Shown in pieces: positions 27,462-31,021 of a stretch of 51,856 nt of DNA. The DNA lies in assembly GCA_037137755.1 (NCBI GenBank), contig JBAXJR010000017.1:1-51856 (forward strand). Reading direction: 5' to 3'. The stretch's first letter is position 1. Each line of letters begins with the position of its first letter. The notes under the pieces are model-generated. The model had not been told where the DNA came from and did not search any database. It saw nothing but the letters and a program-made list of their open reading frames with translations. Source of the stretch: Methanomicrobiales archaeon (GTDB lineage Archaea > Halobacteriota > Methanomicrobia > Methanomicrobiales > Methanospirillaceae). Both the position numbers and the translations under genes were made by a program.

Positions 27462-28024
27462 TGCTGACCATTGTCCCCGGACCGTGCCCGGTATGTAATG
27501 CCGAGATCGAGTACCTGTATCAGACAGATAATATCCCTTATTTTTCGGATATTATTATGATCCGTGCCCTTTGTCCCAAGTGCGGGTACCGGTATGTCGA
27601 TACCCAGGTGCTCACCACCCAGGCGCCAGGACGGCAGGAGTTCCTTATTGAGACACCTGATGATATCGATGTCCGTGTTGTACGGAGCATGGAGGGAATT
27701 GTCATGATACCCGAACTCGGGGTCAGGATCGATCCGGGCCCTGCCTGCGAAGGGTTTGTCTCCAATATTGAAGGTGTACTCAACCGGGTCACTGAGGCGG
27801 TCGAGGGGGTAATGGCCCATGGGGATGCTACAGAACGGGAAAATGCCAGAATATTCCTCGAAGATGTAGCGGCGGTTAAGAGGGGTGAGAGACCAGTGAC
27901 TCTCATTATTGATGATCCTTCCGGAAACAGTGCCATTATTTCTGAAAAAACGAGGAAACTGCCTTATCCGGAGGATGAGGGGGAGGGAGATGATGGGGAC
28001 GATCCGGAGAGATCTGCAGAATAA
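27461..28024 (+). CDS. ZPR1 zinc-finger protein
   Basis: CPVC...IPYF...CPKCGYR, IPELG, SNIEGVL and DDPSGNS motifs. Confidence 0.92.
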   Translation: MLTIVPGPCPVCNAEIEYLYQTDNIPYFSDIIMIRALCPKCGYRYVDTQVLTTQAPGRQEFLIETPDDIDVRVVRSMEGIVMIPELGVRIDPGPACEGFVSNIEGVLNRVTEAVEGVMAHGDATERENARIFLEDVAAVKRGERPVTLIIDDPSGNSAIISEKTRKLPYPEDEGEGDDGDDPERSAE

Positions 28025-28199
28025 TCCACTTGGAACGGTCCCTTTATAGATAGTTCGGTCCTTTTGACAGTAACGTTACTACAAAAATTGGCTCTTTTGA
28101 AACAGAACTGAATGGAAGTTCATTTCCGGACTATGAAAATACACTACCAATAACCTCGTTTTTTTGTCCGTTCGAGCATTTAATATGAAAATAGATGAT

Positions 28200-29480
28200 T
28201 CAGTGGCTCACCTCTCGAAATTTTTGATCAAGAGAAGAGTTCGGGTGAATTACTTCGAAGCCACATTCAATAATAAAATCAATAGCCTTTTGAACATCAG
28301 AGCGGGAATTTTTTGAGAATTTCTGAACGACTGGCGGTTTTGTTGGTTTTGTATTTTTTAACGGATCGATATAAAGTTCCTTTTTTATGAGAAGATGCCA
28401 GAGAATGCATAAGATCTTCCGAGCCAGTGCGACAGTCGCGGTATTCCCGCCTTTTCGATATGCGATCCTGTTGAAAAATTTCCTGAACGTTGTATTGACC
28501 GTTCTTCCCGCAGCTTTTGCCGCCTGCACAAGAATCCAACGGAGATGTTCGGACCCGTGTTTAGTGATTTTTCCGGAACAATTTTTCCCTGCGGACTGGT
28601 ACACCGACGGCACTAATCCCGCCCACGAAGCAAGTTTCTCGGCATTTTCGAAATCACGGTAATCCCCGATTTCTGCCAGGATAGTTACCGCCGAAGTAAC
28701 ACTGATGCCAGGAATTGAACACGCGATCTCAACATCACGAATACTATCTTGTTCTGTCATTCTTGCGATGATCTGTTCGTCGAGCGCACGAATGTGTTCA
28801 TTAATATGAGCCATCATATCGAGATTTCTCTTGATCAGAATGATCTGTAAATCCGACAACGAACCGGATAATATCTCCCGAAGTACGTCCGCCTTCTTTT
28901 TAACTCTGGCTGAAGGAAGAGTTGAGATGATATCGTCGGTGTCTGCCCTGTTCAGAAGCCCCAAAATAAGGTGGATCCCGCTTTTCCCAAAGATATCTTG
29001 CACTCCCTTACCTAAGGCAATTCCGGCAGAATCGAGAATGCGGTGAATCCGGTTCTTTATCTGGGTCCTTGACTTAACCGTGGATTCCCGCGATCTGGTC
29101 AATTCCCGCAATTCTCTGTCATTTTTCTGGAAGACTCGCGAAGGGTTGATAAGTCCGTTCATTGCGAGTTCGGCGATCCATTGCGCATCACGAACGTCGG
29201 TCTTCCGACCGGGAATGCTCTTGATCTGGTACGCATTTCCAACTATTACCCGCATTTGGCCCTCGAATGCCAGGTAAAGCCGATACCAATACACACCGGT
29301 TGATTCACATGCTATACACTCGCAGCTTTCTTCCTCAATTCGCTTTTTGAGCTTCTGAATGCCGCTAAAATTGTTGAAAACCCGAAAACTTAACGGGTCT
29401 TTCTCCCGTTTGAGTATGCACACCTGGAGAAATTCTTTATGTACATCTACTCCGCATACACAATTGTAGTGGGGTTGCAT
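28200..29480 (-). CDS. IS110-family transposase/recombinase (RuvC-like DEDD + Tnp domain)
   Basis: GVDVHK (D), CESTGVYW (E), GRKTDVRDA (DD), SIPGIS, and WAGLVPSVYQSAG (catalytic Ser region); GAGGAG RBS upstream. Confidence 0.96.
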   Translation of the reverse strand: MQPHYNCVCGVDVHKEFLQVCILKREKDPLSFRVFNNFSGIQKLKKRIEEESCECIACESTGVYWYRLYLAFEGQMRVIVGNAYQIKSIPGRKTDVRDAQWIAELAMNGLINPSRVFQKNDRELRELTRSRESTVKSRTQIKNRIHRILDSAGIALGKGVQDIFGKSGIHLILGLLNRADTDDIISTLPSARVKKKADVLREILSGSLSDLQIILIKRNLDMMAHINEHIRALDEQIIARMTEQDSIRDVEIACSIPGISVTSAVTILAEIGDYRDFENAEKLASWAGLVPSVYQSAGKNCSGKITKHGSEHLRWILVQAAKAAGRTVNTTFRKFFNRIAYRKGGNTATVALARKILCILWHLLIKKELYIDPLKNTKPTKPPVVQKFSKNSRSDVQKAIDFIIECGFEVIHPNSSLDQKFREVSH

Positions 29481-29493
29481 CGTTGCTCCTCAC

Positions 29494-29660
29494 GGTGTGG
29501 GCAGGACATTACTCCTCGAAGGTAATTTAATATTCGCGTTCGACGACGCATGTATGCTTCGATTGACTAATGAATTGGCTAGTTTTCATGACGGGATCCC
29601 GGTCCCAAAATTCTCGCAGCCTTCCCTGCCCACATTATTACAACATACCCTGGGGTATTC
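29494..29660 (+). ncRNA. Putative IS110 bridge RNA
   Basis: A 10-bp outer stem (TGTGGGCAGG 29496-29505 / CCTGCCCACA 29625-29634) encloses two stem/internal-loop/hairpin units whose loops match the target flank and the donor junction. Strand inferred from G-U pairs. Confidence 0.6.
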
Positions 29661-29852
29661 AATTTTCATCCTGTATGCTTGTGGCCCTTCGGCATCATGT
29701 CTGTTTCATGGGAAATCCACCCCCAATTAGCCATATTGTCTCTGGTAGTCCCAATATTTAATCACGCACCTGGGGCTTCGCCCCGCCGCTTCGGTGACCC
29801 CAGTTGGGATAGAGACCCTGCCTAATATTCTGTACTAATGAGCCTTATAGAA

Positions 29853-29915
29853 ACCCTGCCCGAAAGTTTATCTTTTTTGGGAGTGGGGCAGGGAGAGGTT
29901 GAAACCCCTCCTGCC
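29853..29915. repeat. Structured intergenic repeat, copy 2
   Basis: CCCTGCCC/GGGCAGGG stem and GGCAGGGAGAGGTTGAAACCCCTCCTGCC hairpin; homologous to 7261-7323. An extra GGGGC-TTC-GCCCC hairpin lies at ~29772-29784. Confidence 0.65.
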
Positions 29916-30028
29916 CGCGTATTTCCCCTTCTATTATTAAACACCAAAGATGTCAGAGCGAAAAAAATTGACAATAAGGAAAAGATGTTGGAGCGAGATT
30001 TCGTCCCCGTCCACATCAATCAGAGAAT

Positions 30029-31021
30029 TCAGATAACCGTTTTCCCACGCAACACGACACCCGGTTGCTGAGTCACCACTCCCACAACCTTTGCACCAGG
30101 TACCTCGCGGATGACATCCCCTGCTCTGTCATGGGCAACGATGTAGGCATAGCCCATTCCCATGTTGAAGGTACGGTACATCACAGAATCCTGTATCCTC
30201 CCACTCTCCTGTATCCAGCGGAATATCTCCTGCGGGGGCAACGGATCGCTGAAATTAAATCCATATCTGGAAAGACGGGTGAAGTTGAGTAATCCTCCGC
30301 CGGTTACATGGCACATCCCATGTACCACCACCTTACGGTTCACATCCAGGCACTCATGGTAGATCCTGGTCGGCGTAAGAAGTTCAGCACCAAGAGTCCT
30401 GCCATTCCCAAGCTTTACCTCGTACCCGCCGTGTTCTTCTGCTACTTTCCGGGCGAGGGTGAGACCGTTACTGTGAACGCCACTTGAGGGGACCCCGACG
30501 ATCAGGTCATCGGGTTGTATCGTTTCACCATTCACCACTTTGTTCTTATCCTGGATCCCAAGACACGTGCCCGCGAGGTCAAGACCATTCACGAGTCCGC
30601 GGAGCGTTGCGGTCTCACCACCAACAATATCGATATTCGCCAATTTGGCTCCTTCGTTCAGTCCAATACCGATCTGTGCCATTTTTCCGGTATCGAGCCG
30701 GTCGGTCGCAACATAATCAACAAATGCGACGGGTTCGAGGTTCATCACATAGAGGTCGTTCACGTTCATTGCAATGCAGTCGATACCGACGGTGCTCCAG
30801 TCGTGCATGTGGTCAGCAACAAGCATCTTGGTCCCAACACCATCCACGGTGAGTGCGAGGACTTTTTCCCCAAAATCGATAAGACCAGCATAATGGCCGA
30901 CACTGCCAAGCATCCTGTTCTGGCCACTCCGCCTGTAGCTCAGGTTCCGGATCAGCGATTTTACTGCTGCCGCCTCGAGGTCGATATCAACTCCTGCCTC
31001 CCGGTACGCGTCCTCAGTCAT
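30029..31021 (-). CDS. purM: Phosphoribosylformylglycinamidine cyclo-ligase
   Basis: YREAGVDI, DGVGTK, GGETA, SSGVHSNG, HVTGGG and TFNMGMG. Start MTEDAY at 31021. Confidence 0.96.
   Translation of the reverse strand: MTEDAYREAGVDIDLEAAAVKSLIRNLSYRRSGQNRMLGSVGHYAGLIDFGEKVLALTVDGVGTKMLVADHMHDWSTVGIDCIAMNVNDLYVMNLEPVAFVDYVATDRLDTGKMAQIGIGLNEGAKLANIDIVGGETATLRGLVNGLDLAGTCLGIQDKNKVVNGETIQPDDLIVGVPSSGVHSNGLTLARKVAEEHGGYEVKLGNGRTLGAELLTPTRIYHECLDVNRKVVVHGMCHVTGGGLLNFTRLSRYGFNFSDPLPPQEIFRWIQESGRIQDSVMYRTFNMGMGYAYIVAHDRAGDVIREVPGAKVVGVVTQQPGVVLRGKTVI

Follow-up and report, generated by a model that had tools for sequence, protein, structure and literature searches.

To our knowledge, no guides other than bridge and seek RNAs define both of the DNAs that take part in a recombination reaction, and their mechanism is known from few bacterial elements. 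For the insertion sequence (IS) IS621, the passages on guide layout in PMC11208160 describe loops in which the 5' side (8–9 nt) pairs with the bottom-left strand and the 3' side (4–7 nt) with the top-right strand; both guides include the core, and the loop for the target comes first. In the IS1111 elements the two matches come in the opposite order to that of IS621 (PMC11187229, in the parts consulted). As far as the available passages of the surveys go, one paper counts 662 archaeal IS110 recombinases, and a 2026 preprint gives 32190 bridge RNA loci and 86 models, many of them unlike IS621. Here we describe an intact IS110-family insertion sequence of 1523 bp, in minus-strand orientation, from a Methanomicrobiales archaeon (GenBank assembly GCA_037137755.1, contig JBAXJR010000017.1). 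It lies at 28187–29709 of the stretch of 51,856 nucleotides that was analysed (the window, to which all positions refer; left and right are those of the recombinase strand), and its recombinase is probably steered by a structured RNA encoded in the non-coding end on the start side of the gene.

The element resembles IS621 (PMC11208160, as far as its passages describe it; structures 8wt6 and related) in its DEDD and Ser recombinase (PF01548, PF02371, NF033542), in having its long non-coding end on the upstream side of the gene (left end of 229 nt, right end of 13 nt), and in an RNA with two stem/loop/hairpin units, one for the target and one for the donor junction. As in IS621, a dinucleotide and no longer duplication is found at both junctions of the window copy, and the guides are naturally reprogrammed among relatives. 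It differs from IS621 in that the protein is only distantly related, a single outer stem encloses both units, and, on the strand of the gene, the donor loop comes first with 9-nt guides on the 3' side. Moreover, one guide per loop was found here, and the left flank is not conserved. The guide layout of IS621 is not matched on the recombinase strand; for the long guides it is matched on the opposite strand, and the tests of strand given below conflict.

The recombinase and a two-loop RNA

As predicted from the sequence at the outset (hereafter the original prediction), the open reading frame of the recombinase is intact and free of stops. Within the protein we identified domains from Pfam, namely DEDD_Tnp_IS110 (PF01548, E-value 4.4e-29) and Transposase_20 (PF02371, E-value 2.2e-25), and the NCBIfam model NF033542, "IS110 family RNA-guided transposase", scored 270.9 bits (cut-off 140). 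An alignment of 14 relatives shows no variation at D12, E59, D95, D98 and S296, and these residues align with the IS621 motifs GIDTAK, IEATG, KTDTVDA and YESGSS; we take these D/E/D/D and S positions to be the equivalents of the catalytic residues of IS621. The N-terminal RuvC-like DEDD domain and the C-terminal Ser-bearing Tnp domain that were recognized in its sequence assign the predicted protein to the IS110 family, as a distant relative of the solved recombinases (IS621, E-value 4.8e-8, C-terminal domain; ISCro4, E-value 9e-8).

The long non-coding end upstream of the gene is predicted to contain a structured RNA with two loops, in which the outer stem encloses two units of a stem, an internal loop and a hairpin. 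All helices proposed in the original prediction could be traced. The outer stem (29497–29505 with 29625–29633) has nine Watson-Crick pairs, and its proposed tenth pair is a G-U that forms on the minus strand only. The gene-proximal unit consists of TCGAAG (29516–29521) with CTTCGA (29557–29562) and GCGT (29536–29539) with ACGC (29546–29549), and the other unit of GGCT (29577–29580) with AGCC (29618–29621) and GGGAT (29593–29597) with GTCCC (29602–29606). From 27 non-redundant relatives we built a covariance model with 23 consensus pairs in four helices, 13 of which show compensatory changes. Searching 99 loci with this model gave 102 matches, 99 of them distinct. In the alignment of these 99 RNAs, which was fitted to the model and is hence biased towards the structure, 96.3% of the cells are paired, compared to 87.1% in shuffles, and two-sided changes occur at 21 of the 23 pairs. 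None of 500 shuffles reaches any of the fold measures, and sliding the partners by 1–3 columns reduces pairing to 33–43%. As folding of single sequences performed no better than folding of shuffles (z of -0.81 for the window copy and +1.87 for a degraded paralogue, C29), the support for the structure comes solely from covariation. An Rfam scan of 27800–30100 identified no family inside the element.

At one of the loci (L016, 4085–4211) the RNA model matched again (110.4 bits), about 2.7 kb from the first match and on the opposite strand. Because this second match carries a GGGAAAT guide, two family members with different guides are neighbours at this locus.

The target loop tracks the right flank

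On the recombinase strand, the nine bases ATATTAAAT in the second, gene-proximal internal loop are the same as the DNA just beyond the recombinase-distal end of the element. This identity between loop and flank was already part of the original prediction. In the window, ATTTAATAT is present exactly twice (28178–28186 and 29525–29533), which taken alone is weak, as at least two matches were found in 7 of 100 shuffles. The evidence exceeds chance because of the relatives, in which the fold, the loop and flank, and the loop and end covary, and not because of the window alone.

The 3' side of the gene-proximal loop reads GCG(A/G)-AU-NNNAAAU on the recombinase strand. Copies inserted at sites unlike that of the window element had been named as a finding that would speak against guidance by this loop; among the full-length orthologues, the right flank is ATTAAAT in nine of ten, at unrelated loci (the exception is L115), and a locus with a right end only (L017) has ATTAAAT on the right as well. 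Elsewhere among the relatives, different loop sequences are found beside matching flanks, namely AGTAAAA, TGGAAAT, AGGAAAT, GGGAAA, GCCAAA, GACAAA, GGAAAA, ACGAAA, GGTAAA, GCGAAA and GTGAAT. Two complete genomes with multiple copies of one element have GGAAAA at all their intact right junctions (6/6 and 5/5), matching the loop AT-GGAAAAT, and the left flanks of these copies differ.

A first count at the three variable positions of the guide, over 32 insertions (26 extracted automatically and 6 by hand), gave 89 identities out of 96, and at the level of classes none of 200000 shuffles reached the observed value. Fully automatic extraction yielded 80 elements with a guide and a right end, corresponding to 76 distinct insertions; 35 more loci gave no call. 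These 76 insertions, with 26 different loop sequences, agree at 201 of the 228 variable positions, and all three bases are identical in 60 of them. Counted over the 26 guide classes, 66 of 78 positions are identical (0 of 100000 shuffles). The covariance analysis that had been suggested as a check shows both that the fold is kept and that the loop covaries with the flank, and the unit-1 loop of the original prediction follows the insertion site across relatives.

The donor loop tracks the left terminus

The last eight bases on the 3' side of the donor loop (AUGAAAAC) recur at the left terminus of the element. The sequence TTTCATGA, proposed for the second loop at 29584–29591, is present there, and in 83 distinct elements this loop was found to change together with the element's own end. 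Searching the 110 nt upstream of the outer stem, where matches lie at a steady distance of about 67–88 nt, we found the donor guide to match its own end exactly (8/8) in 48 of the 83 elements and at seven of eight positions in a further 21; guides taken from unrelated elements as a control gave 6 exact and 30 seven-of-eight matches in 415 comparisons. C20-type copies, named after the split copy described below, have ATGATAAC or ATATTAAC in loop and terminus alike. In one orthologue (L119, 81% protein identity) terminus and donor loop have both changed from GAAAAC to GGGAAAC, which, judged from sequence, is a natural reprogramming of the donor. The donor junction expected for the window element (TTTC-AT-GAAA) is palindromic, in agreement with the near-palindromic donor that had been proposed. 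With a target loop that tracks the flank and a donor loop that tracks the end in many relatives, the sequence data support the idea of a programmable archaeal recombinase.

Table 1. Coordinates of the element, its RNA and its flanks in the window.
Feature	Position	Strand	Basis or remark
IS110-family insertion sequence	28187..29709	-	extent set by homology with orthologues and mini-elements
Recombinase gene, 426 amino acids, DEDD residues and Ser motif	28200..29480	-	Pfam, NCBIfam, alignment
Long non-coding left end, 229 nt	29481..29709	-	sequence layout
Predicted structured RNA core: outer stem enclosing two stem/internal-loop/hairpin units	29497..29633	.	covariance model, 119.4 bits; covariation
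Putative target guide AUAUUAAAU, 3' side of second loop on minus strand	29525..29533	-	covaries with right flank, 26 guide classes
Putative donor guide UCAUGAAAAC, 3' side of first loop on minus strand	29582..29591	-	matches left terminus; covaries, 83 relatives
Terminal part of left end, about 60 nt	29650..29709	-	common to mini-elements without gene and RNA
Left terminus, ATGAAACA on minus strand	29702..29709	-	one A fewer than donor guide and orthologues
Left flank GGATTTCCC on minus strand	29710..29718	-	in 3/10 full-length orthologues and several mini-elements
Short right end, 13 nt	28187..28199	-	minus strand ..CATCTATTTTC then AT; ..ATTTTC-AT kept in relatives
Putative target right half-site, AT-ATTAAAT on minus strand, directly outside right end	28178..28186	-	identical to 29525-29533

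Extent of the element and copies in the genome

Alignment of other copies, which had been proposed as a check, places the ends of the element at 28187 and 29709, because homology stops there. Homology to orthologues from other Methanoregula assemblies (83–93% protein identity) runs from ATGAAA(A)C to ..ATTTTCAT, and the same ends are seen for the degraded C29 paralogue and for mini-elements that lack the gene. An alternative core pair that the original prediction had kept in play (28178–28179 and 29715–29716, 7 and 6 nt farther out) could be rejected on this basis. Read on the plus strand, the end sequences are ATGAAAAT.. from 28185 and ..TTTCAT at 29704–29709; on the recombinase strand the left flank is GGATTTCCC and the right flank ATTAAATGC. 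AT is present at each junction, as an internal copy at 29708–29709 and an external copy at 28185–28186. The terminal inverted repeat is 7 bp (TGAAAA/TTTTCA). The only other inverted repeat is an internal ATGAAAAT (29662–29669), an inverted copy of the right end that lies, together with a hairpin, within the terminal part of the left end. The genome contains three copies: the intact one in the window, a split one on contig C20, and one on contig C29 that carries two stops.

Several observations concern the surroundings of these copies. A repeat of about 200 nt adjoins the element (29741–29949) and is, in searches with a 4.1-kb query, highly reiterated in the genus, with matches by the dozen in each genome; one end of this repeat is at or close to the element's left flank. 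The sequence outside the right end (28086–28186) resembles the sub-terminal module of the left end of C20-type elements (..TCCGTTCGAGCATTTAAT compared to ..TGCGGTCGAGCATAAAAC, each followed by ATGAAAAT), as judged from the window compared with C20, and the window element may have inserted into the remains of a related element. In another genome (G054), two copies of a relative (L051 and L052) are broken near the right end by an identical foreign sequence with a G+C-rich hairpin (..CCCGCCCCCTCATAACGATGTAGGGGGGG..), which may be another mobile element.

Proposed course of excision and insertion

From these matches we infer the following mechanism. The element would be excised as a circle joining ..CTATTTTC-AT-GAAAC.., with the predicted junction ..CATCTATTTTC-AT-GAAACAGAC.. 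Each internal loop has about nine programmable bases on one of its strands. Those of the gene-proximal unit spell AT-ATTAAAT, the putative target half-site outside the far end; those of the other unit spell (TC)AT-GAAAAC, the element's own near end, which in the excised circle would be preceded by ..ATTTTC and form the donor junction. The complex of RNA and recombinase would pair one loop with the junction of the circle and the other with AT-ATTAAAT in the chromosome, and after strand exchange at AT the element would lie to the left of ATATTAAAT.

The target seems to be recognised as a 9-nt half-site, because the left flanks of the relatives are not conserved. Among 68 left junctions we found no conserved flank, with a weak T bias only, and a single class of donor is associated with 10 different left flanks. 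Where elements share GGATTTCCC, it often forms the end of a different repeat of the genus, and at one locus (L014) the left and right flanks are almost reverse complements of each other. No conserved match that could guide recognition of GGATTTCCC was found on either strand of four whole orthologues, with wobble allowed. A second guide per loop was not found in either orientation, consistent with the caveat in the original prediction that convincing right-hand guides were not identified; with one guide per loop, the element does not show the arrangement in which each loop reads both sides of the DNA via left and right guides for opposite strands. On its other side, the target appears to be read loosely or not at all.

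The AT core that had been proposed is found at both junctions of the window copy, and is not general among the relatives, of which only 20 out of 68 have AT at the donor-side (left) junction. We therefore dropped a 2-nt core shared by the whole family as a candidate. Instead, the dinucleotide of the left junction follows the donor loop and that of the right junction follows the target loop, and in L182 AC replaces AT in loop and junction alike.

Strand of the RNA and alternative explanations

We slightly favour, at about even odds, an RNA made on the recombinase strand, within or ahead of the recombinase mRNA. At variable pairs, G-U exceeds A-C when this strand is read (38 versus 17 cells, 29 versus 15 clusters), and two near-invariant wobble positions likewise favour it. 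On the recombinase strand, 6 of 57 clusters have T runs of at least six inside the RNA, versus 14 of 57 on the opposite strand. In addition, a Shine-Dalgarno-like GAGGAG directly follows the outer stem, and because of this position the gene needs transcription through the left end. Read on the recombinase strand, both guides would start at the crossover and be identical to the top strand on the right, and no relabelling of the strands maps them onto the known rule. In that case, the DNA segments held by the RNA would be those with their 3' rather than their 5' ends facing the crossover, with the left half of the target unread; this mirror image of the IS621/IS1111 geometry is a tentative proposal, to which we give somewhat less than even weight. 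Two further features give a divided picture, as wobble-type mismatches between guide and flank fit one strand in five cases and the other in three, and A+T-rich motifs and T runs occur on both sides of the RNA.

A number of results weigh against the proposed mechanism or against this strand. Mismatches at one or more of the three variable positions were found in 16 of the 76 automatic insertions, misses that include several wrong right-end calls and broken copies, all kept in the count. In the window the left terminus is one A shorter than its guide. A pattern search of the window's genome found no uninterrupted target, and a pattern search of the genus found four one-mismatch matches in 3 of 13 genomes, versus three control matches. 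Of the empty site that had been predicted, the flanks agree with those of the orthologues (left in 3/10, right in 9/10) and the uninterrupted sequence itself was not found in the genome; in other genomes of the genus the orthologous intergenic region lacks the element but is too diverged to show an uninterrupted site. In 36 of 57 clusters the minimum free energy speaks for the opposite strand (p 0.044; p 0.003 for the gene-proximal unit), and the guide polarity on the recombinase strand contradicts that of IS621 (PMC11208160, in its passages on the guides) and that of IS4321 as checked here. The sole RNA evidence consists of two contigs from a metatranscriptome (run X2), 100% identical over 29482–29677 with none over the gene, which are unstranded, of low depth and possibly due to DNA carry-over. 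No circle junction was detected among the contigs of four RNA runs: a joint in run X3 that connects 28192 with 29648 corresponds to a mini-element and not to a circle, and the small shares in runs X1, X3 and X4 correspond to relatives.

The most serious alternative retains the RNA-guided system but has the RNA transcribed from the window's plus strand, in antisense to the leader of the recombinase gene. We rate it possible, somewhat short of an even chance. This was the strand read in the original prediction, which holds in so far as it fits the long-guide layout of IS621, and is set back by being antisense to the recombinase gene. The target loop would come first, and the guides AUUUAAU-AU and GUUUUC-AU would lie on the 5' side beside the distal hairpin with the dinucleotide at their 3' end, a geometry equal to that of the left target and left donor guides of IS621, with the short 3'-side guides missing. 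Loop order, loop side and guide polarity would all become canonical by comparison with IS4321 and the consulted description of IS621. Consistent with such a transcript, the antisense fold is the more stable one in the 36 clusters mentioned above, more pairs enclose the gene-proximal hairpin (715 versus 681), T4–T5 runs are found downstream of the outer stem in archaeal copies, and a hairpin with a T run is present at this position in an Alicyclobacillus relative (which has one on the other strand as well); the identical RNA contigs would also fit. Against it, the wobble counts favour the recombinase strand, the two near-invariant wobbles would turn into A-C, and the longer T runs are commoner on the plus strand. 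Moreover, the first codons of the gene contain no conserved promoter-like element (the His-Lys codons vary), the recombinase mRNA would still cross the region in sense, and the passages, titles or abstracts of the bridge and seek RNA literature that we consulted mention no antisense bridge RNA.

One pair of orthologues (L114 and L115, 93% protein identity) has the target loop ATCAAAT, and the adjoining flanks are ATTAAAT and ATTATAG. The C-for-T difference may reflect a G-T wobble, which is possible only with a plus-strand RNA, or a mutation after insertion.

It is very improbable that the internal copies act as DNA, as sub-terminal sites for the recombinase or by DNA-DNA pairing, while the fold serves something else. 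Both copies do have the same sense as the DNA they match, an uncommon arrangement for a guide RNA of that strand, and the ends carry other repeated motifs such as the internal ATGAAAAT. However, the copies fall precisely in the internal loops of a fold that is kept by compensatory changes (21/23 pairs), the protein family has experimentally been shown to use such RNAs, and mini-elements without these copies still land at ATTAAAT, fitting a factor supplied in trans.

Least probable of all is the reading, raised with the original prediction as its possible refutation, that ATATTAAAT serves the recombinase gene merely as a TATA box, about 45 nt upstream of its ATG, and that the identity with the flank is due to chance or A+T-rich context: the sequence is TATA-like, at a plausible distance from the start codon, and the repeat alone is not significant, but the reading fails because relatives have loops that are not TATA-like (GGAAAAT, GACAAAT, GGGAAAA, GCCAAAT, ACGAAAA) and yet match their own right flanks, with the class counts given above (66/78) out of reach of 100000 shuffles. 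For the window copy, the sequence may have a promoter role besides its role as a guide.

Comparison with IS1111, IS4321 and a bacterial relative

According to the parts of PMC11187229 consulted, the element shares with the IS1111 group a guide order that differs from that of IS621, terminal or sub-terminal inverted repeats (7 bp here), and the frequent use of related elements or repeats as targets. It differs from this group in that the non-coding region is upstream of the gene here and downstream there; the group's combination of a downstream RNA region and sub-terminal inverted repeats of 7–17 bp was not found. In the plasmid record of IS4321, the downstream region contains AAAACGGAAA, which is the right target in reverse complement, and after it TATTTTC, which reads as the left target in sense. 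The crossover is the endpoint of both matches, with the top-right match preceding the bottom-left one, whereas the matches of our element do not end there on the strand of the gene. Similarity to the IS4321 protein is confined to the C-terminal domain (28%, E-value 2e-8).

The best match in the plasmid collection is an element annotated as "IS110 family transposase" on a plasmid of Alicyclobacillus fastidiosus (NZ_CP104068), with 37.8% identity over 91%. Its left end has the same arrangement of terminus, hairpin, ATGAAAAT and then a structured region, and the sense-strand copies GU-AC-AUAAGAC and GU-AC-GGUAGAA match the left terminus and the right flank, respectively. This relative differs in being bacterial, in having AC as its junction dinucleotide, and in an RNA too diverged for the archaeal model. 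On the same plasmid (L109, 2050–2700) a second partial copy of the gene and right end follows the element, which apparently inserted into another copy of itself.

Within the titles and abstracts consulted from the bridge RNA and IS110 literature the layout found here is not described; the supplements of the surveys may hold the clade.

Distribution and mini-elements

The RNA model matched 13 of 151 genomes sampled across the phylum (9 of 63 genera), and homologues of the recombinase were found in 26 of 151 genomes of the family. In a scan of metagenomes, 519 of the 597 stretches that matched the search patterns encode a relative of the recombinase.

The genus commonly contains mini-elements of about 75–85 nt, made up of about 60 nt of the left end and about 13 nt of the right end, with up to 22 matches per genome. 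As they contain neither the gene nor the RNA, they are probably mobilised in trans. Reading 18 right junctions of mini-elements by eye, we found ATTAAAT exactly in 9 and with at most one mismatch in 16. C20-type elements sit directly behind a mini-element (..TTTTC-AT), as would be expected if the old right junction remains a target. The genome of the window itself has gene-less mini-elements at C3 (L003, near 1690–1830), C53 (L004) and C20 (L005). The one at C3 is nested or duplicated in inverted orientation, and another abuts the left end of the C20 copy.

Significance

As the principle of recombination guided by such RNAs is established and large surveys of bridge RNAs exist, our finding extends rather than overturns current knowledge. 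It points to an archaeal clade with a compact RNA of about 137 nt, at least 26 natural settings of the target and many settings of the donor, which together provide a table of reprogrammable positions. Either the polarity of the guides or their orientation relative to the gene differs from the described cases, and resolving which of the two applies would show how much freedom the scaffold of recombinase and RNA has. The mirror geometry, if true, would add a third architecture to those of RNA-guided recombination within the IS110 superfamily, used by methanogens and at least one relative from the Bacillota. For Methanoregula, the element accounts for genome dynamics in the form of dozens of gene-less mini-elements that occupy the same half-site and were apparently moved in trans.

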